Below are positions 28,144 through 40,048 of a stretch of 64,000 bases of DNA, piece after piece; the stretch's first letter is position 1, and every line of letters starts with the position of its first letter. The DNA is from Escherichia coli (GTDB lineage: Bacteria; Pseudomonadota; Gammaproteobacteria; Enterobacterales; Enterobacteriaceae): assembly GCF_024223415.1 (NCBI RefSeq), contig NZ_CP100500.1, one strand, 5' to 3'. Below the pieces are notes generated by a model. That model ran no database searches. It saw nothing but the letters and a program-made list of their open reading frames with translations, and was not told the DNA's origin. The position numbers and the translations under genes are program-made.

Positions 28144-28416
28144 ATGTCTCATACAATCCGTGATAAACAGAAACTGAAAGCGCGTGCCAGTAAGATTCAG
28201 GGCCAGGTCGTGGCGCTCAAGAAAATGCTCGACGAGCCGCACGAATGCGCTGCAGTTTTACAACAGATTGCTGCTATCCGTGGCGCGGTAAACGGTCTGA
28301 TGCGGGAAGTGATTAAAGGTCATCTGACGGAACACATCGTTCACCAGGGGGATGAGCTAAAACGTGAAGAAGATCTGGATGTCGTTCTGAAGGTGCTGGA
28401 TTCATATATCAAATAA
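28144..28416 (+). CDS. rcnR: Ni/Co-responsive transcriptional repressor RcnR
   Basis: 90-aa CsoR/RcnR-family protein. Confidence 0.9.
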
Positions 28417-28557: not shown

Positions 28558-28643
28558 TTTCTCATTTAGTGTTTTTTGTGGTTCGGGGTTGTTCGTGGTT
28601 GTTTGTGTATGTGTTTGATATATATTGAATTATTGTGTTTTCT

Positions 28644-28718
28644 TGTTTGTTGTTGTTCGTCGTTGTTCGTAGAGCTTCAACAAAATGTGTGGTCAGTTGT
28701 GTGGTCAGTTTTTTGAGG
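28644..28718. repeat. Left copy of ~75-bp near-identical direct repeat just inside the island end
   Basis: ttgttcgtcgttgttcgtagagcttcaacaaaatgtgtggtcagttgtgtggtcagtttt shared with 39821-39895; contains internal TTGTTCGT and TGTGGTCAGTT sub-repeats. Confidence 0.85.
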
Positions 28719-28745: not shown

Positions 28746-29969
28746 GTGGGAAAAGCACTAAACAAACTGAGCGATTCGACGTTAAAAAAATTGGCGTCTG
28801 TCCAAGCAGAAAAAGAGCGTTTTTACTCCGACGGGGGCGGGCTGGAGATTAAACACTCAAAGGGCGGCAAATTAACCTGGTATTTCCGGTACCGAACGGG
28901 AGGCCGTGAGGTTGCCGCAGAGCGGTTAAAGCTGGGGGCTTACCCTGAATTGTCGCTGAAAGCTGCAAGGGAAAAACGCGCACAGTGCCGGGCATGGCTG
29001 GCTGAGGGTAAAAACCCCCGTTATGAGTTGTGCGCCACAGTACAGGAAGCGCTAAAACCCGTTACGGTGAAGGAGGCGATTAACTACTGGCTGGATGAAT
29101 ATGCGAAGGATAACCGCAAAGACTACATAAAGCTGGTGCAACGTATGGATAAGCACATCATTTGCCATATAGGGGCAATTCCCCTTGATAAGTGTGATAC
29201 AAGGCAGTGGATCGCATGTTTTGACCGTGTACGAAAAAAAGCACCAGTAGCAGCAGGGCACGTCATGCAAACCTGCAAACAGGCGCTAAAGTTCTGCCGC
29301 AGGAGACGCTACGCGTTCAGTAATGCCCTGGACGATTTGATCGTCAGCGATGTGGGTAAGAGAGCAGAAATTCGCGAGAGGGTGCACAGCAACAGCGAAT
29401 TAAAGGAAATTTTACGCGCTATTGATGGTGATGTGTTCGCGCCTTACTACAGCGCGTTAATGCGCTTGCTGATTGTGTTCGGGTGCAGAACGGCAGAGGT
29501 CAGACTTTCAGAGATCAAAGAATGGGATCTGAAAGAAATGTTGTGGACAGTGCCAAAAGAGCATAGCAAAACGAAGGTAACGATATTCAGGCCAATCCCC
29601 GATGGCATTTTGCCGTTCATTCAGAAGCTGGTGGAGCAGAACCGGCATACAGGGTTATTACTCGGAGAACTGAAAAAAGATACCACGGTAGCGCAATATG
29701 GGCGAAATGCGCATAAGCGGCTTAACCAGGAACACTGGACGCTGCATGACTTTCGCCACACGTTTACAACGATGCTGAACGATTTAGGTGTCGATCCGCA
29801 TATCGTGGAGCACATCACAGCGCATCAGATGCCCGGTCAGCAAAAAACCTATAACCATTCACGCTATTTACAGGCGAAGCGAGACGCTCTGAATCTGTGG
29901 GTTGAGCGCCTCGATGTGCTGGCTGGAAATCATGAAAATATTGTCATATTAAGGGCTGAAAATGAATAA
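28746..29969 (+). CDS. int: Tyrosine recombinase, P4-type integrase
   Basis: N-terminal arm-binding-like segment (SDGGGLEIKHSKGGKLTWYFRYR) and C-terminal catalytic region (HDFRHTFTT...); apparent GTG start. Confidence 0.9.
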   Translation: MGKALNKLSDSTLKKLASVQAEKERFYSDGGGLEIKHSKGGKLTWYFRYRTGGREVAAERLKLGAYPELSLKAAREKRAQCRAWLAEGKNPRYELCATVQEALKPVTVKEAINYWLDEYAKDNRKDYIKLVQRMDKHIICHIGAIPLDKCDTRQWIACFDRVRKKAPVAAGHVMQTCKQALKFCRRRRYAFSNALDDLIVSDVGKRAEIRERVHSNSELKEILRAIDGDVFAPYYSALMRLLIVFGCRTAEVRLSEIKEWDLKEMLWTVPKEHSKTKVTIFRPIPDGILPFIQKLVEQNRHTGLLLGELKKDTTVAQYGRNAHKRLNQEHWTLHDFRHTFTTMLNDLGVDPHIVEHITAHQMPGQQKTYNHSRYLQAKRDALNLWVERLDVLAGNHENIVILRAENE

Positions 29970-30747
29970 TCTGGGCCGTGTATATCATACGCTGCCAATG
30001 GCAGCTAAAAAAATGGGATGTACTGTAGAGGATATTCTACATTTTGGTGCAACTAACCGACTTGAAATATGTGCGTATATTGATGATATTGAACAGAGAA
30101 AAGATTATTGCACTTTTAATGTGTTTTTTGATAATGAAGATAGCGAGAATAGTTTTTCTAAAACTATAAATAAATATAATTCCATATTTACTGACATGTA
30201 TGAAATATCATTGTTTAATTATAATGATGAGTTTTGTGTTGATGATGAGCGTATGGTTATTGAAGGTTTGTATGCTAATCATATGAAAGGCTTTTTTGCA
30301 ATACCATCTGAATTTCTTGTCGAAGTTGAATTGTCAAGTGCCTGTGAAATCATAAATCTATCGCCTCGTTATTTATATACACCGAAAGGTTATGGTGATT
30401 ATATTCGGTTGGATAGTATAGAAGGTCTTTCTATTCCAGAAAACAGGCTCGTGATATTCGATAGTGAGATATCGGGTTTTAATTATCAAAAGAAACCTAA
30501 ATATGCCGGAGGTGAAAGAGAATCACCTAAAACCAGAGCTAAAAAAGCCGAGATAATACCTGCTCTCATAAAACTGATCCCTGAGATGCAAGATGTGGAT
30601 TTGGAGGATACACCCGTATCCAAAATTGCAGAAATGATAGAGGTTATTGCTGCACAAAGAGGGGTTGAGTTACCTAGCACTCACAGGCAGACATGGCAGA
30701 AATATTTAGGGCGTGATGCTGGTGACGTTCCAAAACGTCAAAAGTGA
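29962..30747 (+). CDS. Hypothetical cargo protein, AT-rich, translationally coupled to int
   Basis: 261-aa ORF overlapping int stop by 8 bp; noticeably lower GC than flanks; no motif recognised. Confidence 0.6.
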   Translation: MNNLGRVYHTLPMAAKKMGCTVEDILHFGATNRLEICAYIDDIEQRKDYCTFNVFFDNEDSENSFSKTINKYNSIFTDMYEISLFNYNDEFCVDDERMVIEGLYANHMKGFFAIPSEFLVEVELSSACEIINLSPRYLYTPKGYGDYIRLDSIEGLSIPENRLVIFDSEISGFNYQKKPKYAGGERESPKTRAKKAEIIPALIKLIPEMQDVDLEDTPVSKIAEMIEVIAAQRGVELPSTHRQTWQKYLGRDAGDVPKRQK

Positions 30748-30803
30748 TATCACGTACAGATAGTGTGATATCACACAAACGGCATTTTACCACCGCCTAG
30801 AAT

Positions 30804-30837
30804 CGTCCTCGTTCGGCAACGTTCGAGGACGTTTTTT
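30804..30837 (+). terminator. Hairpin plus T-run immediately upstream of alpA start
   Basis: cgtcctcg...cgaggacg followed by TTTTTT then ATG; the 3' arm contains the GAGGA Shine-Dalgarno-like sequence. Confidence 0.5.
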
Positions 30838-31062
30838 ATGAATCAAAATACACAATTTCAATCACTATCAGATCGCGTAATCCGTGAGGATGAATGCCGT
30901 AAGTTAACAGGAGTGTGCCGCACTACACGCTACGAACTGGAGAAAAAAGGGAGCTTTCCGTCTCGCCGTAATCTTGGTGGGCGTTCTGTAGGTTGGCTGC
31001 TGTCCGAGGTTATGGAATGGGTTAAAAGCCGGGATCGCATTAATTCAGGCAAGGCAGCGTAA
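30838..31062 (+). CDS. alpA: AlpA-family phage transcriptional regulator
   Basis: 74-aa small HTH protein with typical AlpA-like pattern (SDRVIREDECRKLTGVCRTTRYELEKKGSFP). Confidence 0.8.
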   Translation: MNQNTQFQSLSDRVIREDECRKLTGVCRTTRYELEKKGSFPSRRNLGGRSVGWLLSEVMEWVKSRDRINSGKAA

Positions 31063-31200
31063 AGGGGAGTATATGACACATAAAACAAAGGCGACCGGGG
31101 GCGGTCGCCAATGGGAAAACACTAAACATAAGCCCGGCCATCATAGCGATTTGCTGGCTGGTGGGCAATGTGTCCAGTGTGGTGGCTTGCTGGTGGATTG

Positions 31201-31428
31201 TCAGCCAGGCGGTCGGTTTTTGCCGGATTTAAGCCGCCGTGGGTATTTATCGACAAAATCTTCAAGGGCAAATTTTTCTGGTGGCACTAAGCGCGGCGCT
31301 GGTGGTGGTATTTTTGTTCTGGTTAGTTCTTCCTCAAGTCTGGCGCAGGCTTCTGACTGCCTTTGCCGGATGATTTCATCATCTTGCGTTTGCGTGTCTT
31401 GTATTGGTGATAGTGTGTTGTTGGTCAT
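31201..31428 (-). CDS. Hypothetical protein, second gene of leftward operon
   Basis: 75-aa ORF downstream of the RHH-like gene on the minus strand, followed by a hairpin at 31094-31112. Confidence 0.45.
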   Translation of the reverse strand: MTNNTLSPIQDTQTQDDEIIRQRQSEACARLEEELTRTKIPPPAPRLVPPEKFALEDFVDKYPRRLKSGKNRPPG

Positions 31429-31485
31429 GATACTGCCCTGTAAAGCAATGCGCCGTAGTACCTCACACCACGGCGCTGATAGTGA

Positions 31486-31683
31486 TTATTCTGATTCTTT
31501 GGCCTTGCGGCGCTGTTCATATTTTAATTTGCGTCCACAGGCATCTAAGACCCATGCGGAAAAATTAGCACTAGGATTAGTTAATTTTTCTTGTTCAACG
31601 CTGGCATCAATCCCATCTATAAGCTCATGTGGGAATCGAATATTTTTCTTTGCTGATTTGTTGTTTGTGTTACCACTAGACAT
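31486..31683 (-). CDS. Putative ribbon-helix-helix DNA-binding protein, candidate island repressor
   Basis: 65-aa ORF; N-terminal KKNIRFPHELIDGID resembles the beta-strand/helix of CopG/Arc-type RHH proteins; divergent from rightward operon. Confidence 0.45.
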   Translation of the reverse strand: MSSGNTNNKSAKKNIRFPHELIDGIDASVEQEKLTNPSANFSAWVLDACGRKLKYEQRRKAKESE

Positions 31684-31710
31684 TGATGCACCTCACTTAA
31701 ATGGACTTTA

Positions 31711-31790
31711 TGGGCGCACACAATACAGCAAAAAAAGTGAGAAGTTAAGTATTGACATGTGCGCACACATGATTCTAATCTGTGCGCACA
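31711..31790. promoter_or_regulatory. Divergent promoter/operator region with three copies of palindrome TGTGCGCACA
   Basis: tgggcgcaca (31711-31720), tgtgcgcaca (31758-31767), tgtgcgcaca (31781-31790); TTGACA at 31752-31757 immediately precedes the second site. Confidence 0.55.
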
Positions 31791-31882
31791 GTTTGGGTTG
31801 CATTGCTCAAATTAAGCAACGCCCCGCAGTGCTCGCAACACATGCAGGGCGTCTAACCAAACCGTTAATAGGAGTAACGATT

Positions 31883-32083
31883 ATGGCTGGAACACAGCAT
31901 ACCCCACGCCTTGCGCACACACAAACCGCCTTTGTGTGGCGTTTTCTGGCACTGAGTGCCGGAGAATCTCAAATTATCCACGTAACCGCCTGGACGGAAC
32001 GCGAAGCGCGTAACCGTTGCCCGTCCGGTTGTGTCGCTGTATTCGCCGCCCGTATCCGTCAGGGGGAAACCTATGCACAATAA
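31883..32083 (+). CDS. Small protein, possibly Icd-like (host cell division inhibitor family)
   Basis: 67-aa ORF with good RBS (aggag), first gene of rightward operon; family assignment from memory of similar small P4-like proteins, weak. Confidence 0.4.
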   Translation: MAGTQHTPRLAHTQTAFVWRFLALSAGESQIIHVTAWTEREARNRCPSGCVAVFAARIRQGETYAQ

Positions 32084-32528: not shown

Positions 32529-32828
32529 ATGAAAAATAAAAATTCTGGCGTTAATGCCAGCGGCCCCGCTCGGCCTGAATTTATGAACGGCGATATTTAC
32601 CGCGACCAGTACGGCGGCACGGTAACGATTAAAGGCGTGGAGGAACGGCGCATCACTTACCGCCGTGAAGGCTACGAATATGATTGCGTGATGCCTGTTT
32701 ATCAGTTCCGGCGTGATTTTTCTCTGGTACAGGCAGCGCCCCGCAGTAAACCAACCAGCAGGGAGAAAGCACGCGCCAATATTCAGGAAATAAAAAAGAT
32801 GCTTAACGTATTCAGGGGTAAAAAATGA
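32529..32828 (+). CDS. Hypothetical protein
   Basis: 99-aa ORF, ATGA-coupled to the primase gene. Confidence 0.45.
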   Translation: MKNKNSGVNASGPARPEFMNGDIYRDQYGGTVTIKGVEERRITYRREGYEYDCVMPVYQFRRDFSLVQAAPRSKPTSREKARANIQEIKKMLNVFRGKK

Positions 32829-34573
32829 AACTGGCACCGAACGTAAAAAAACAGCCGCGTGGAATAAAACACAAAGACACAGAGGTGATTATCTTTGCGG
32901 GTAGTGATGCCTGGGCGCACGCGAAACAGTGGCAGGAACAGGACGGCCCCGCATCCGGCGATGATGTGCCGCCTGTGTGGCTCGGGCCAAATCAGCTTGC
33001 TGAACTGGATGCACTGAAAATTGTACCGGAGGGAAAAAAACGCGTAAGGCTGTACAGGGCCGGAGAACTGGATTTGGTGGAGACCAAAAAGATTGGTCAG
33101 AAGCTGGCGGCGGCAGATATTCAGGATGCGAATTTTTACTCTGAAGGAATGCACGGCCAGAAGGTGCAGAACTGGCGGCGCTATCTGAGTGCTGAGCGTG
33201 AAAATATTGCCGCAGGGCTTACCATGCCGGAACAGAAAAAAGCACAACTTTCACAGATGGCAGACAGTGAACGGGCACAGCTTCTTTCTTCCCGCTTTGA
33301 TGGTGTCTGCGTCCATGCAGAAAGTGAAATCGTTCACGTATGGCGCGGCGGGGTATGGTGTCCGGTCAGCACAATGGAACTTAGCCGCGAAATGGTGGCG
33401 ATCTATTCAGAGCACAGGGCCACTTTCAGCAAGCGCGTAATCAATAACGCCGTGGAAGCGTTAAAAGTTATTGCCGAACCAATGGGCGAGCCGTCCGGCG
33501 ATTTGCTGCCGTTCGCCAATGGTGCGCTTGACCTGAAAACGGGGGAATTTTCCCCGCACACGCCGGAGAACTGGATCACCACGCACAACGGCATTGAGTA
33601 CACGCCACCAGCACCAGGGGAGAATATCTGCGACAACGCGCCAAACTTTCATAAATGGCTTGAGCACGCAGCCGGAAAAGACCCGCGCAAGATGATGCGT
33701 ATATGTGCCGCGCTGTACATGATTATGGCGAACCGGTACGACTGGCAGATGTTTATTGAGGCCACCGGAGACGGCGGGAGCGGCAAAAGTACATTCACAC
33801 ACATAGCCAGCCTTCTGGCAGGGAAACAGAACACGGTAAGCGCTGAGATGACATCGCTTGATGATGCTGGTGGGCGTGCGCAGGTTGTCGGGAGTCGGCT
33901 TATTGTCCTGGCAGACCAGCCGAAATATACAGGCGAAGGAACGGGCATCAAGAAAATCACGGGCGGAGACCCCGTGGAAATAAACCCGAAATATGAGAAG
34001 CGTTTTACGGCGGTAATCAGGGCGGTGGTGCTGGCTACCAACAATAACCCGATGATATTCACCGAACGGGCCGGAGGTGTGTCACGTCGTCGCGTAATTT
34101 TCCGTTTCGACAATATCGTCAGTGAGGCTGAAAAAGACAGGGAGCTACCGGAAAAGATTGCGGCTGAAATCCCTGTCATTATCCGCCGCTTGCTGGCGAA
34201 CTTTGCCGACCCTGAAAAGGCACGGGCTTTACTCATTGAACAGCGAGACGGTGATGAAGCTCTGGCAATAAAGCAACAGACGGATCCGGTTATTGAGTTT
34301 TGCCAGTTTCTGAATTTTCTGGAGGAAGCGCGCGGCCTGATGATGGGCGGCGGCGGTGACTCTTCCAGGTACACGACCAGAAACAGCCTTTACCGCGTCT
34401 ATCTGGCGTTTATGGCGTATGCAGGCAGGAGCAAACCGCTAAACGTAAATGACTTTGGCAAGGCTATGAAGCCAGCGGCGAAAGTTTACGGACATGAATA
34501 TATAACGCGCAGGATTAAAGGGTTTACGCAAACCAACGTGACAACAACAGACGACTGCGACGCGTTTTTATAA
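32825..34573 (+). CDS. Phage/plasmid primase, P4 family (NTPase/helicase domain)
   Basis: 582-aa ORF with Walker A GDGGSGKST and D5/P4-alpha-like C-terminal NTPase architecture. Confidence 0.8.
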   Translation: MKLAPNVKKQPRGIKHKDTEVIIFAGSDAWAHAKQWQEQDGPASGDDVPPVWLGPNQLAELDALKIVPEGKKRVRLYRAGELDLVETKKIGQKLAAADIQDANFYSEGMHGQKVQNWRRYLSAERENIAAGLTMPEQKKAQLSQMADSERAQLLSSRFDGVCVHAESEIVHVWRGGVWCPVSTMELSREMVAIYSEHRATFSKRVINNAVEALKVIAEPMGEPSGDLLPFANGALDLKTGEFSPHTPENWITTHNGIEYTPPAPGENICDNAPNFHKWLEHAAGKDPRKMMRICAALYMIMANRYDWQMFIEATGDGGSGKSTFTHIASLLAGKQNTVSAEMTSLDDAGGRAQVVGSRLIVLADQPKYTGEGTGIKKITGGDPVEINPKYEKRFTAVIRAVVLATNNNPMIFTERAGGVSRRRVIFRFDNIVSEAEKDRELPEKIAAEIPVIIRRLLANFADPEKARALLIEQRDGDEALAIKQQTDPVIEFCQFLNFLEEARGLMMGGGGDSSRYTTRNSLYRVYLAFMAYAGRSKPLNVNDFGKAMKPAAKVYGHEYITRRIKGFTQTNVTTTDDCDAFL

Positions 34574-34597: not shown

Positions 34598-34815
34598 GTC
34601 TACCTGAGTAAAGAAAAATACATTTAATTCAGTGCATTAAGTTAGGTAGATAGCCTTTTTTTACTGTCTACCCACTATCTACCCTCTCTACCTGATTTTA
34701 CCAGAATCAGACAGGGAGGTAGACACGGGGTAGATAGTGGATAAAAGCACTCTACCCCGCTGAAAGCCGCGCCATTACTGGCATGAGGGCCACTAAGGTA
34801 GGTAAGGTAGACAAG
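34598..34815. repeat. Iteron cluster, putative island replication origin
   Basis: Many direct and inverted copies of GTCTACC/TCTACCC/GGTAGA motifs immediately downstream of the primase gene. Confidence 0.6.
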
Positions 34816-36050: not shown

Positions 36051-36257
36051 ATGGCAGAAGAGAAAAAAGGCGGGGTGACGGTCTACATAAGCCCCGACAT
36101 CGTGGAGGCGCTCAAGGAACGCCACCAGCAGAATGTAAAAGCAGGCATTGCGGCAGGACTTGATCCGCTGGCGATGGTTGAGCCGTCAACAGGCTGGCAG
36201 GTGCGTACCTATTTACGTGCGGCGCTGGGTATCAATCAGGTTCACGGAGGTGAATAA
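36051..36257 (+). CDS. Hypothetical small protein, first gene of capsid operon
   Basis: 68-aa ORF with RBS, stop overlaps capsid gene start. Confidence 0.45.
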   Translation: MAEEKKGGVTVYISPDIVEALKERHQQNVKAGIAAGLDPLAMVEPSTGWQVRTYLRAALGINQVHGGE

Positions 36258-37312
36258 TGACAGGCAAAGCAACGGCACTTACAACTAACCAGCTTTTCGC
36301 GTACCTGAATCGCGGGGATATTTCGGAATTAAAATTCAGTCCGCTGTTTACCACGCTGTTTTTCCCGAACGTGGCGACCTTCAACACCCAAAACATCATG
36401 CTGGACACCCTGGACATTGAAGAGGTTACGATGTCAGCGTTCTGTTCGCCTATGGTGGGTAGTCAGGTCCAGCGCGATAAAGGGTACGAAACCAGCACAA
36501 TCAAACCTGGCTACATGAAGCCAAAGCACGAAATCGATCCAACAAAGACCATCATGCGCATGGCTGGAGAAGATCCGGCACAGCTTAACGACCCAACCTA
36601 TCGCCGTATGCGCCTGATTACTGGCAACATGCGCCGCCAGGTAAACGCCATTAAAGCGCGTGTTGAATGGCTGGCGGTGAATGCGGTAACGACCGGAAAA
36701 AACATCATTGAGGGCGAAGGCATAGAACGCTATGAAATCGACTGGAAAATACCGGAAAACTGCATCATACAGCAGGCCAGTGGTAAAAAATGGTCCCAGC
36801 AGGATAAAGACATGCACGACCCAATCTATGACATCGAGCTTTATGCTGATCAGGCAGGTTGCCCCGCCAACGTCATGATTATGGGCGGTGAGGTATGGCG
36901 CACATTACGCAGCTTTAAAAAATTCCGTGAACTGTACGATCTTTCCCGTGGATCAGAATCCGCCGCCGAGCTGGCCTGTAAAAACCTGGGCGAAGTGGTG
37001 AGCTTTAAAGGCTATCTTGGTGATCTGGCCCTTATCGTCTATTCCGGCAAATACACTGACAGCGACGGCACCGAAAAATATTTCCTTGAGCCTGATTTGC
37101 TGGTCCTGGGTAACACCAATAATAAAGGGCTGGTGGCATATGGTGCGATTATGGATCAGGAAGCGGTAAGAACGGGCGCAACGCAAAACATGTACTACCC
37201 GAAAAACTGGATTGAGGACGGCGATCCGGCGATTGAGTACGTGCAGACGCACAGCGCACCGCAGCCGGTACCGGCAGATATTCGCAAATTTGTTACCGTC
37301 AAAATTGCTTAA
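36257..37312 (+). CDS. Major capsid protein, lambda gpE-like
   Basis: Clear blocks of similarity to lambda gpE from memory: KFSPLFTTLFF, KPGYMKPKHEIDP, EDPAQLNDPTYRRMR, YSGKY, YPKNWIEDGDPA. Confidence 0.85.
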   Translation: MTGKATALTTNQLFAYLNRGDISELKFSPLFTTLFFPNVATFNTQNIMLDTLDIEEVTMSAFCSPMVGSQVQRDKGYETSTIKPGYMKPKHEIDPTKTIMRMAGEDPAQLNDPTYRRMRLITGNMRRQVNAIKARVEWLAVNAVTTGKNIIEGEGIERYEIDWKIPENCIIQQASGKKWSQQDKDMHDPIYDIELYADQAGCPANVMIMGGEVWRTLRSFKKFRELYDLSRGSESAAELACKNLGEVVSFKGYLGDLALIVYSGKYTDSDGTEKYFLEPDLLVLGNTNNKGLVAYGAIMDQEAVRTGATQNMYYPKNWIEDGDPAIEYVQTHSAPQPVPADIRKFVTVKIA

Positions 37313-37323
37313 CGGGGGATTCT

Positions 37324-37659
37324 ATGGACGCTCCATATATTGAGTTATTTGCAGGCAGCCAGCAGGTATCCACGACGCTGGTACATTTTGCCGCTGATGC
37401 TGGCGTTATTCAGGAATTTACCCCGCTGATGCTGGCAGACAATGGCGAGTTTAAGGCGTGGGATGGTCAGGAATCTGGCAAAGCTGTTTATCTGACTTCG
37501 CACCCCGTGGACACGTCAAAGCAGAAATCAGCACAGTGTTACAAAACGGGGATATTCAATATTGCCGCCGTTAACTGGCCTGACAGCGTCGACACCGATG
37601 CGAAAAAATGCGCCGCCTTTGCGGGTTCCGGCGTATCCGTTCAGCCGCTGGCCCGATAA
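37324..37659 (+). CDS. Head decoration protein, lambda gpD-like
   Basis: Similarity to lambda gpD blocks: TPLMLADNGEFKAWDG and YKTG.F....WPDSVDTDAKKCAAFAGSGVSV. Confidence 0.75.
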   Translation: MDAPYIELFAGSQQVSTTLVHFAADAGVIQEFTPLMLADNGEFKAWDGQESGKAVYLTSHPVDTSKQKSAQCYKTGIFNIAAVNWPDSVDTDAKKCAAFAGSGVSVQPLAR

Positions 37660-37671
37660 GCAGGGGGAACG

Positions 37672-38085
37672 ATGGCAACGAATGAAAGTATCATGACGCT
37701 ACCGCTGGCGAGTAAATTTAAAGCCGAAGCGCGGGCAATGGCTGACAGAGGTTTATCAACCTACGAGGCCATACACCGACTAAACAAACTGGAAGAACAG
37801 GACAAGCCGCGCGCTGATGCGATTATGGCGCTTCATGAATCTGACGACTACCAGCCGCTGTTACGTGCAATGGCTAACGTGCCTTGTATCGATGTTGGTA
37901 CGGCTAAAAGCATCCTTAGCATGACCATAGAGCAGGAACGCCCGAAGGTTGCACCAGAGCTTACTTCAGCCTTTGAAAACTTTATGGACATGCACAGCCC
38001 GAAAGCCGTATCAGCTGGCATGGCATACGATGGCAGAACCCCGTGCGATGACGGCGACATCGACCGCATACTGAAAACCATCTGA
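37672..38085 (+). CDS. Hypothetical head-module protein
   Basis: 137-aa ORF directly after the decoration gene; no motif recognised. Confidence 0.45.
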   Translation: MATNESIMTLPLASKFKAEARAMADRGLSTYEAIHRLNKLEEQDKPRADAIMALHESDDYQPLLRAMANVPCIDVGTAKSILSMTIEQERPKVAPELTSAFENFMDMHSPKAVSAGMAYDGRTPCDDGDIDRILKTI

Positions 38086-38090
38086 GACAA

Positions 38091-38116
38091 GGCCGGAGAA
38101 ATCCGGCTTTTTTTGC
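38091..38116 (+). terminator. Intrinsic terminator after capsid operon
   Basis: aggccggagaaatccggc followed by TTTTTTT; near-duplicate of the hairpin at 35816. Confidence 0.6.
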
Positions 38117-38200
38117 GGGTCCTTTCCGGCATGTGGACCCGTTACGGGGCGTCGACCTCGCACGTTTTCGCTATTTATGACGTTTTTCCGTGAAGGTGAC
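38115..38200 (+). other. Lambda-like cos site (cosQ-cosN-proximal cosB), copy 1, upstream of terS-like gene
   Basis: gggtcctttccgg...gttacg GGGCGTCGACCT cgcacgttttcgctatttatga closely resembles remembered lambda cos (gggtcctttccgg...gttacg GGGCGGCGACCT cgcgggttttcgctatttatgaaaa). Confidence 0.7.
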
Positions 38201-38247
38201 ACCACCACCACTTGATTAATATTTAACCATGTAGTTAAGGTAACATT

Positions 38248-38682
38248 ATGATTGATAAAGCTTGTTTTGTAAGTCAGCAGGAAATAGCTGAACATTTCAA
38301 TGTTAACAGAACCACTATTCGCGCATGGACCAAACAGGGGATGCCGTATCTTAATGCGGATCGCGGAAAGTCTGGCGGTTATCACATCGGGCATACATTG
38401 TTTTGGTATTCAGGTAAAAGCCATCTTCAGACCATCGGATATCACGTAGAAACCAGTGCGCTGGAAAAAATTATGTTTGCCAGGCTGCTTTCATCTGAGC
38501 GTGACGAGTACTCCAGTGAAGAAACAGAACATCGATTTGATGAAGGTTTGCAGATTTACGGCTATTCACCGGAAGATGTGAGCAAGGCACGAAATAAAAT
38601 GGCTGGCTTTCTGGCTGGGTGGCGTCATGCCGTAAGCGTTCGCCGTGCCAGCATGGAGCAATCAGCCGATACAGAACAGTAA
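38248..38682 (+). CDS. Terminase small subunit-like protein (Nu1-like winged-helix N-terminus)
   Basis: N-terminus QQEIAEHFNVNRTTIRAWTKQGMPYL parallels lambda Nu1 KKQLADIFGASIRTIQNWQEQGMPVL; C-terminal part is divergent. Confidence 0.7.
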   Translation: MIDKACFVSQQEIAEHFNVNRTTIRAWTKQGMPYLNADRGKSGGYHIGHTLFWYSGKSHLQTIGYHVETSALEKIMFARLLSSERDEYSSEETEHRFDEGLQIYGYSPEDVSKARNKMAGFLAGWRHAVSVRRASMEQSADTEQ

Positions 38683-39242: not shown

Positions 39243-39374
39243 TACGTACGGACATCGAGATAACGCAAAATTGCGCTGGCTACATCCCTCACATCTGAGG
39301 ACTGATAACAAGCTGCCTGAAAGACAGTCACAAACTACGAAATTTTCGCAGTTTAATTAATGGTCAGCTTAATC

Positions 39375-39665
39375 GCTAACCCGCTGATATTTTCGGAAAC
39401 ATCAATTTGAGGAAGTCGGCGCGGTAACTCGCTGAACTTAAAGCAAAGCGCAAAATTGCGCTGATTACTGGTTGGAATTGTTCCAGAGTGCAAATTTGCA
39501 CTCTGGCCTAACCCGTTGATTATTTCGAAAACCTGCAATGCAGGAAATCGGGGAAGTAAGCCTAAGCTATTGATTGTTTCGAAAACCACCATTGGGGGAT
39601 GTCGGGAAAGTAAGACTAACCCATTGATTCTTCCACAATCCTCAATGTGAGGAGGCCGGACATCG
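39375..39665. repeat. Four ~54-bp imperfect repeats (three in tandem), each with a variable central CAAT-containing near-palindrome
   Basis: Units at ~39375, 39506, 39560, 39614 share CTAACCC.TTGATT.TTTCGAAAAC and TCGGG.AAGTAAG flanks around a variable centre (e.g. cctgcaatgcagg, cctcaatgtgagg). Confidence 0.7.
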
Positions 39666-39820: not shown

Positions 39821-39895
39821 TTGTTTGTTATTGTTCGTCGTTGTTCGTAGAGCTTCAACAAAATGTGTGGTCAGTTGTGTGGTCAGTTTTGAGGT
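39821..39895. repeat. Right copy of ~75-bp near-identical direct repeat just inside the island end
   Basis: Same ~60-bp core as 28644-28718. Confidence 0.85.
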
Positions 39896-39953
39896 TTTTA
39901 ATTCTTATGTGCTGAAAAACTTATTAATTATCAACTGATAACAAAAATTAGTA

Positions 39954-39967
39954 AGAAATACCCGTAT
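39954..39967. repeat. attR core: 14-bp direct repeat AGAAATACCCGTAT
   Basis: Identical to 28544-28557; continues directly into riboswitch 3' sequence. Confidence 0.75.
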
Positions 39968-40048
39968 CACCTGATCTGGATAATGCCAGCGTAGGGAAGT
40001 CACGGACCACCAGGTCATTGCTTCTTCACGTTATGGCAGGAGCAAACT
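39954..40048 (+). ncRNA. 3' part of thiM TPP riboswitch (P4/P5 plus expression platform) retained upstream of thiM
   Basis: gaaatacccgtatcacctgatctggataatgccagcgtagggaagtcacggaccaccaggtcattgcttcttcacgttatggcaggagcaaact ATG matches the thiM leader 3' half. Confidence 0.75.

Follow-up and report, generated by a model that had tools for sequence, protein, structure and literature searches.

The 64,000-nt stretch of Escherichia coli DNA analyzed here (contig NZ_CP100500.1; below, the window) carries an 11.2-kb island in which a tyrosine integrase gene, int, and alpA are separated by an open reading frame (ORF) of 261 aa that we call X. All three lie on the forward strand: int at positions 28746 to 29969 (407 aa; phrog_1, E 4.6e-67), X at 29962 to 30747, with an ATG start and its TGA stop at 30745 to 30747, and alpA, encoding a 74-aa AlpA-family regulator/excisionase, at 30838 to 31062 (phrog_2790, E 1e-17). 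In homologous loci the integrases carry Arm-DNA-bind_3 and Phage_integrase, and Pfam Phage_AlpA is found in the AlpA proteins. A sequence-only reading of this DNA had described X as overlapping the end of int by 8 bp, as markedly lower in GC than the surrounding island and as having no recognisable motif, and all three observations held. The X start codon (29962) lies within ...GAAAATGAATAA, and the int stop codon occupies 29967 to 29969; a candidate ribosome-binding site (RBS), AAGGG, is found 9 to 13 nt before the X start. The GC content of X is 35.6%, compared with 49.2% for int, 47.6% for alpA, and 48.6% for the whole island, and the sliding GC profile dipped to 0.305 at 30000 to 30399. 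There was no match to X in Pfam, NCBIfam, or PHROGs, and none in PADLOC at E ≤ 1; a profile of the whole X sequence found nothing meaningful in the PDB.

The AlphaFold model of X (predicted local distance difference test score, pLDDT, 82; predicted template modeling score, pTM, 0.64) divides the protein into three parts. The N-terminal unit (residues 8 to 40; 29983 to 30081, forward strand), the part most widely common in the family, is a helix-helix-strand arrangement that weakly resembles a winged helix of the Xis/MerR kind. Its best structural matches, all weak, were to excisionase-type winged helices such as those of Pukovnik Xis, RdfS, and an AlpA-family Xis; the sole Pfam signal was HTH_17, just below threshold in 2 of 65 diverse family members, and a profile of this unit showed no similarity to AlpA (hhalign probability 0.2%). 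The middle domain (residues ~46 to 175; 30097 to 30486, forward strand) is beta-rich, confidently predicted, and hypervariable, and had no structural match; it is here that the low GC of X is concentrated (30.0% GC, with 22% at third codon positions). A linker at residues 176 to 188, disordered in the model, leads to a C-terminal domain of three helices (residues 189 to 248 in the model, delimited here as 189 to 251; 30526 to 30714, forward strand) with the motif PKTxAKK...THRQTWQKYLGR. This domain gave a pLDDT of 83 when modeled alone and had no sequence relative in the PDB or Pfam. No enzymatic or effector domain was found anywhere in X by Pfam or structure searches.

The three parts vary independently. 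Protein P0002 was 91% identical to the window's X in the N-terminal unit, 96% in the middle domain, and 67% in the C-terminal domain; the corresponding values were 71%, 42%, and 94% for P0008, and 33%, 18%, and 64% for the Serratia protein P0019. Among complete E. coli genomes, nucleotides 1 to 572 of X were matched in one and nucleotides 532 to 786 in ten, and the whole gene was matched in none. We concluded from these domain-wise identities and partial matches that parts of X are exchanged by recombination.

A word-indexed search found 19 clusters of close X relatives, all annotated as hypothetical and all from Enterobacterales, and when 1.84 billion representative proteins were searched with a profile, 210 clusters scored E ≤ 1e-3. 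The remote homology search suggested in the sequence-only reading, Foldseek with the predicted structure against the AlphaFold Database, yielded 229 structural relatives, every one uncharacterized; it extended the family to Vibrio, Salinivibrio, Shewanella, Aeromonas, and Oceanimonas, with full-length relatives in Vibrio and Salinivibrio. The clusters, the conserved N terminus and start, and the confident AlphaFold model showed X to be a genuine gene, not an ORF arising by chance. In tblastn searches X relatives were absent from 50,697 phage genomes and 72,556 plasmids. In every context examined (E. coli, Serratia, metagenomes, and IMG/VR contigs) the order was int-X-alpA, even for relatives that have only the N-terminal ~45 residues in common. 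The start of the gene usually overlaps int by 4 bp (ATGA), most related loci having overlaps of 1, 4, or 8 bp. Members of the X family are found in classical phage-inducible chromosomal islands (PICIs), namely the window's island and an enterohaemorrhagic E. coli island at cspD-clpS, and also in capsid-forming PICIs (cf-PICIs; loci L002 and L003) and in satellites attached at fis; Fis was enterobacterial in all 76 fis-linked loci retrieved. As judged from the databases searched, the family is restricted to phage satellites, and it is unnamed. Our literature search found no paper naming or characterizing it: a survey of helper-embedded PICIs places Int and AlpA/HTH_17 in an "integration zone" and names no gene family between them, and the cf-PICI papers make no mention of the X gene.

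The slot between int and alpA varies among sister islands, which hold X variants, an unrelated DUF6387 protein, or nothing. The DUF6387-family protein, of ~280 aa, occupies the slot in L026 (2573 to 3427), L053, L067, L080, L082, L089, L115, and L116; proteins of 155 to 216 aa are found in L046 to L048, and the slot is empty in L027, L056, and L062. DUF6387 was considered as a hidden X relative and rejected (hhalign probability 1.3%). EcCIMP1_002 was likewise rejected as an X counterpart, being a small unrelated protein, and yfjH, which lies between intA and alpA of CP4-57 in E. coli K-12, is on the opposite strand and thus represents a different arrangement. We do not equate the O157:H7 island that carries an X allele, WP_000775337.1, with the cf-PICI EcCIEDL933; the annotated locus is a ~9-kb PICI at cspD-clpS.

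Two copies of the perfect palindrome GTGATATCAC, neither with an assigned strand, lie at and just beyond the end of X: O1 at 30744 to 30753, within which the X stop codon falls, and O2 at 30765 to 30774, 21 bp from O1. They are the only exact copies in the 64 kb. For comparison we collected 47 distinct int-slot-alpA loci, from sources that included 76 stretches of fis-attached satellites fetched by the fis-end repeat. Where X ended in the C-terminal type found in the window (...TWxKYLGR; type A), a GTGAnnTCAC pair was present at the stop codon and at +21 in 18 of 20 loci; it was present in none of the 27 non-type-A loci (Fisher p = 4e-11, uncorrected for relatedness). All five loci of type B (G[IV]xLPxGKxIxxWL) instead had a GGAAnnTTCC pair just after the stop codon, and those of type C (ELDYVxIP...EISKK) had GGAAATTTCC-type sites within the final 45 nt of the gene. 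No palindrome pairs were found at DUF6387-like slots (n = 9) or empty slots (n = 3). Because types A, B, and C have one N-terminal profile in common but different palindromes, the site type follows the C-terminal domain, and the N-terminal domain was rejected as the specificity determinant. The GTGAnnTCAC pair was kept where AlpA proteins were 49 to 69% identical and whole X proteins ~31 to 34% identical, and the 11-nt spacer between the copies was not conserved. In the type C loci L008, L031, L073, and L111 the palindromes within the gene encode the conserved tail ...VEIP......EISKK, so that conservation of this tail may reflect selection on the DNA.

Natural swaps of the slot gene or C-terminal type (L008, L031, and L026) bear on which protein might recognize these sites. 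L026 has the same rcnR site, an Int 96% identical and an AlpA 92% identical to those of the window, a DUF6387 slot protein, and no palindromes; L027, whose AlpA is identical over residues 12 to 74, has an empty slot and likewise no palindromes. AlpA was therefore rejected as the palindrome binder, as these two loci lack the sites despite a nearly identical AlpA, and Int was rejected on the evidence of L026. Where the center of the sites was not palindromic, the two copies carried it in opposite orientations in L013 and L016 but in one and the same orientation in L110. Both arrangements would be acceptable to a symmetric dimer, though not to a single stem, which favors protein sites; one long RNA stem formed by both copies was judged unlikely, as each copy is palindromic by itself, the sequence is conserved, and L110 breaks the pairing. 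In IMG/VR the exact pair occurred at 11 places, against a chance expectation in that collection of roughly 0.1: eight X-alpA loci, two coding tandem repeats in tail-fibre-like genes, and one myovirus prophage, L038. In this prophage (IMGVR_UViG_2588253800_000018, 2165 to 2195) the arrangement GTGATATCAC-N11-GTGATATCAC stands between an Ant/ORF6N anti-repressor gene, which it directly follows, and a T-run; it may represent a terminator or a regulatory site used in common.

Between O2 and alpA, starting 28 nt after O2, is a hairpin on the forward strand (30805 to 30837) with arms GTCCTCG (30805 to 30811) and CGAGGAC (30824 to 30830), followed by six T residues at 30832 to 30837. The 51-nt stretch up to the alpA ATG had a minimum free energy of −19.2 kcal/mol. 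A simple terminator scan missed this hairpin since its apical part exceeds 8 nt, and Rfam contained no known RNA matching the region between X and alpA. The sequence-only reading had taken it for a terminator; hairpin and T-run are indeed present, and beyond this the 3' arm contains the alpA Shine-Dalgarno sequence, GAGGA (30825 to 30829). Of 21 loci folded, 20 were predicted to form a stable stem before alpA, distant satellites and loci without X included. This conservation was established from single-sequence folds; the MAFFT consensus folded poorly, with the arms misaligned. The arms vary with compensating changes: GTCCTCG/CGAGGAC, GCCCTCG/CGAGGGC, AGCTCCTT/AAGGAGCT, CCCCC/GGGGG, and GCCTCTAC/GTGGAGGC. 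As a T-run follows the hairpin in only about half of the loci, the window included, hiding the alpA RBS seems to be the common function of the hairpin and termination a secondary one. Fold-back of this kind inhibits translation of the IS10 and IS50 transposases; in our case it is the hairpin, a cis element and not X, that would hide the Shine-Dalgarno sequence in transcripts arriving from upstream; one begun within the 5' arm would not be subject to it.

Directly before the 5' arm, also on the forward strand, is a −10-like TAGAAT (30798 to 30803) with no match to a −35 sequence; related loci have nnnAAT at the same place. If TAGAAT were used, O2 would be centered near −41 and O1 near −62. If it is the alpA promoter, the start would lie inside the 5' arm, so that alpA's own transcript would escape the hairpin, while read-through from int-X would be terminated or could not be translated. 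The apical part of the hairpin also holds a direct repeat of CGTTCG (30810 to 30815 and 30820 to 30825; 10-bp spacing). It appears elsewhere as (C/T)GAAC-N5-(C/T)(G/A)AAC, in all lineages, on either strand, and with any slot gene; as AlpA is common to all these loci, the repeat is a candidate AlpA binding site.

Among known genes the closest counterpart of X is iolg, a gene of the Vibrio element PICMI115 described in 2024 in Nature Communications (PMC10803314). That gene lies between int and alpA, overlaps int by ATGA, and was reported as being of unknown function. It is expressed constitutively with int, whereas alpA is induced by phage; its deletion abolishes helper-induced excision, packaging, and transduction, and once int and iolg are present alpA alone suffices for excision (PMC10803314). 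Genes of this kind form 13 families that overlap int by 1, 4, or 13 nt, ATGA being the commonest (PMC10803314). X, too, has int before it and alpA behind it on one strand, its start overlapping the end of int, and divergent families fill the position in both cases. There are differences: PICMIs (phage-inducible chromosomal minimalist islands) are 6-kb elements of Vibrionaceae with virulent helper phages, whereas the window's element is an 11-kb E. coli island of PICI type, and the PICMI paper proposes a role in an excision complex and reports neither operators nor a domain structure. We rate the X family, by analogy, as an iolg-type gene, and the functional proposal made here as new.

From these observations we propose, at about an even level of confidence, that X is a modular DNA-binding regulator of the AlpA switch, from a satellite-restricted family of integrase-overlapping genes. 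The int-X transcript would yield X along with Int. The three-helix domain at the C terminus of X would bind O1 and O2, probably as dimers, both sites facing one side of the helix shortly before alpA, and X bound there would decide whether AlpA is made. The N-terminal winged helix and the hypervariable middle domain would form the input or effector side, possibly reading a signal from the helper phage. The hairpin would hide the alpA RBS and, in this island, terminate int-X read-through, leaving alpA to be expressed only by the X-controlled route. The gene itself, its modularity, its constant gene order, and the statistical association of operator type with C-terminal type were observed directly; we infer from them the binding of DNA by X, its target promoter, the direction of control, and any sensing of phage. 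As to that direction, we lean toward positive control, with X as an activator or licensing factor of alpA, because sites near −41 and −62 would stand at a promoter without a −35 sequence and because the iolg gene of PICMI is required for excision.

Several points weigh against this proposal. The fold search found no helix-turn-helix (HTH) match for the C-terminal domain, the part that would contact the palindromes. In the two type A loci that lack the intact pair, L014 and L106, the second copy is degenerate, and in the 12 kb of L038 prophage sequence covered no X-like C-terminal domain was found despite the exact pair. The operators adjoin the region coding for the C-terminal domain, and co-inheritance of one DNA block could inflate the association between them. 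The promoter scan did not flag TAGAAT, and these bases may belong to the A-tract of the hairpin stem. Some sister islands have no X, showing that X is not universally needed for control of AlpA. Finally, the likeness of X to iolg is one of gene position and overlap.

The palindromes might have nothing to do with X, being either an RNA or DNA stem, such as an mRNA 3' end or a terminator, or the site of some other host or phage protein, with X serving an unrelated function. The two copies can pair with each other, the L038 pair, with an anti-repressor gene before it and a T-run behind, might be a terminator, and the want of an HTH fold noted above would fit as well. Yet in the palindromes the sequence itself is conserved and not pairing alone, unlike the arms of the alpA hairpin; self-complementarity of each copy and the broken inter-copy pairing in L110 speak for separate sites, no T-run follows the pair in X loci, and different C-terminal types have different palindromes. 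We regard this explanation as very improbable. We find it still harder to credit the suggestion of the sequence-only reading that X is a stand-alone anti-phage or competition factor, a single-gene defence or helper-interference protein in a variable accessory position. The low GC, the mosaic variation, and a slot whose contents differ between sister islands, as that reading had supposed, are what such cargo would show, and PICIs do carry defence genes in variable regions (10.1101/2025.02.11.637232). The same paper on cf-PICIs, however, puts the expected immune regions around the packaging module and not in this slot. Moreover, X had no PADLOC match even at the permissive threshold given above, nor did five other slot occupants at E ≤ 0.01; the gene is absent from the phages and plasmids searched, showed no enzymatic or effector domain, and stands in strict order with int and alpA, so that the label of cargo is not supported, even though modules are swapped in this slot. 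Its C-terminal type, moreover, co-varies with the operator type, a sign of a regulatory role in the satellite's switch.

Two alternatives remain. In one, X is a structural accessory or directionality factor in an excision complex with Int and AlpA and not a transcription regulator, and the palindromes serve some other purpose or none. Such a complex of Int, IOLG, and AlpA is what the PICMI authors propose, as excision is abolished by iolg deletion (PMC10803314), and the sequence-only reading had named an excision directionality factor as its fallback, which is plausible by analogy with that requirement. Translational coupling of X to int is consistent with it, as are the weak excisionase likeness of the N terminus and the sub-threshold HTH_17 signal. 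Against it, the conserved sites, ~2 kb away from attL and 9 kb from attR, fall outside the att arms; the closely similar Int of L026 uses the same attB without X and hence is not obviously X-dependent; and the N-terminal profile has no similarity to AlpA. Comparison with the winged helices of AlpA, Vis, and Xis (Phage_AlpA, HTH_17) points both ways: the N-terminal 40 residues of X match this fold class best, although weakly, but X is a 261-aa protein with two extra domains, its profile did not match the islands' AlpA, and it has no significant Pfam match. We consider a purely structural role possible, though on balance unlikely. A role in excision would be compatible with the regulatory proposal, since P2 Cox and 186 Apl each act as excisionase and regulator alike; Cox, in addition, activates a satellite promoter. 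These proteins serve as an analogy only, each being one small DNA-binding protein that steers recombination and a switch promoter, and X differs from them in size and architecture.

In the other alternative, X is a master repressor like Stl, made constitutively with Int and sitting on O1 and O2 so that alpA stays off until a helper protein binds the variable domain. Stl of the Staphylococcus aureus pathogenicity islands (SaPIs) and Rpr of Gram-positive PICIs are, like X as proposed, satellite-encoded DNA-binding switch proteins next to int with variable, helper-recognizing parts (PMC6092414). As a member of the int operon X would be present in the resting state, two cooperative palindromic sites would abut the −35 region, the hypervariable middle domain recalls the diversity of SaPI Stl among the repressors described there (PMC6092414), and insulation by the hairpin against read-through fits with keeping alpA off. 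Deletion of iolg, however, abolishes excision and does not make it constitutive (PMC10803314), a phenotype that indicates a positive factor and not a repressor; sites near −41 and −62 at a promoter without a −35 sequence would be typical of activators; and the existence of sister islands with the same AlpA but no X means that repression by X cannot be a general mode of silencing. Stl is transcribed divergently from its target genes, whereas X runs in the same direction as alpA, and no sequence or fold relationship of X to Stl or Rpr was found: searches of Pfam, PHROGs, the PDB, and the AlphaFold Database revealed no homology to these proteins or to phage CI-type HTH domains. We therefore judge a repressor of this kind quite unlikely.

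The island that carries X is bounded by two copies of a 70-nt direct repeat (repeat family D2, n = 2), 99% identical and 11,178 bp apart: attL at 28643 to 28712, with no assigned strand, and attR at 39821 to 39890, where the repeat holds a doubled motif, TGTGTGGTCAGTT x2. It lies between rcnR (28144 to 28416) and the thiM leader. A match to the thiamine pyrophosphate (TPP) riboswitch at 39880 to 40014 was sub-threshold in Rfam (36.4 bits, with a gathering score of 54.3); since the end of the right repeat coincides with the start of this match, the insertion is directly upstream of the thiM leader. Beyond it are ORFs of 262 and 266 aa, sizes that fit ThiM and ThiD. The gene order within the island is int, X, alpA, a P4-type primase gene (32825 to 34573), ssb, a PerC-like gene, and then capsid genes, and this content (int, alpA, P4-type primase, and head genes) identifies the element as a PICI-type phage satellite. 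The capsid genes, at 36257 to 38682, encode a 351-aa major head protein and a head-decoration protein and include one phrog_1999/protease-like and one small-terminase-like ORF; the ORFs scanned in the island included neither a portal nor a large terminase gene. This capsid module is partial, and the full set is present in L002, a cf-PICI at the same attB. Other features were noted in passing. An ORF of 336 aa directly after alpA (31073 to 32083) is probably no gene: its composition is unusual, several ORFs on the other strand overlap it, and related islands have short Icd-like and YlcI/YnfO genes annotated here. At 34669 to 34743, just beyond the primase gene, is an inverted repeat of 16 nt (94% complementary, arms 43 nt apart) whose position suggests a replication origin or terminator; its Rfam match to mir-135 is spurious. 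Near the right end, before attR, a 54-nt repeat occurs three times at 39374 to 39613 (70 to 78% identical).

Induction of Gram-negative PICIs has been recognized since 2018 as the turning on of alpA by a helper phage, and how this is done was described as unknown (PMC6092414, PMC10803314). These papers describe no island-encoded regulator acting upstream of alpA, and the X family is a candidate for one: it is widespread in Enterobacterales and, by fold, in other Gammaproteobacteria, and its matching operator pairs lie exactly where control of alpA would act. The proposal further offers a possible function for iolg, a gene that is essential yet unexplained, and provides an annotation signature (int, overlapping gene, twin palindromes, RBS-hiding hairpin, alpA). 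As a speculative extension, to which we attach rather low confidence, X might be the helper-phage sensor of Gram-negative PICIs, its middle domain binding a helper protein and its C terminus, on O1 and O2 at about −62 and −41, turning on alpA. If so, exchange of the middle domain would reset which phages induce a satellite.

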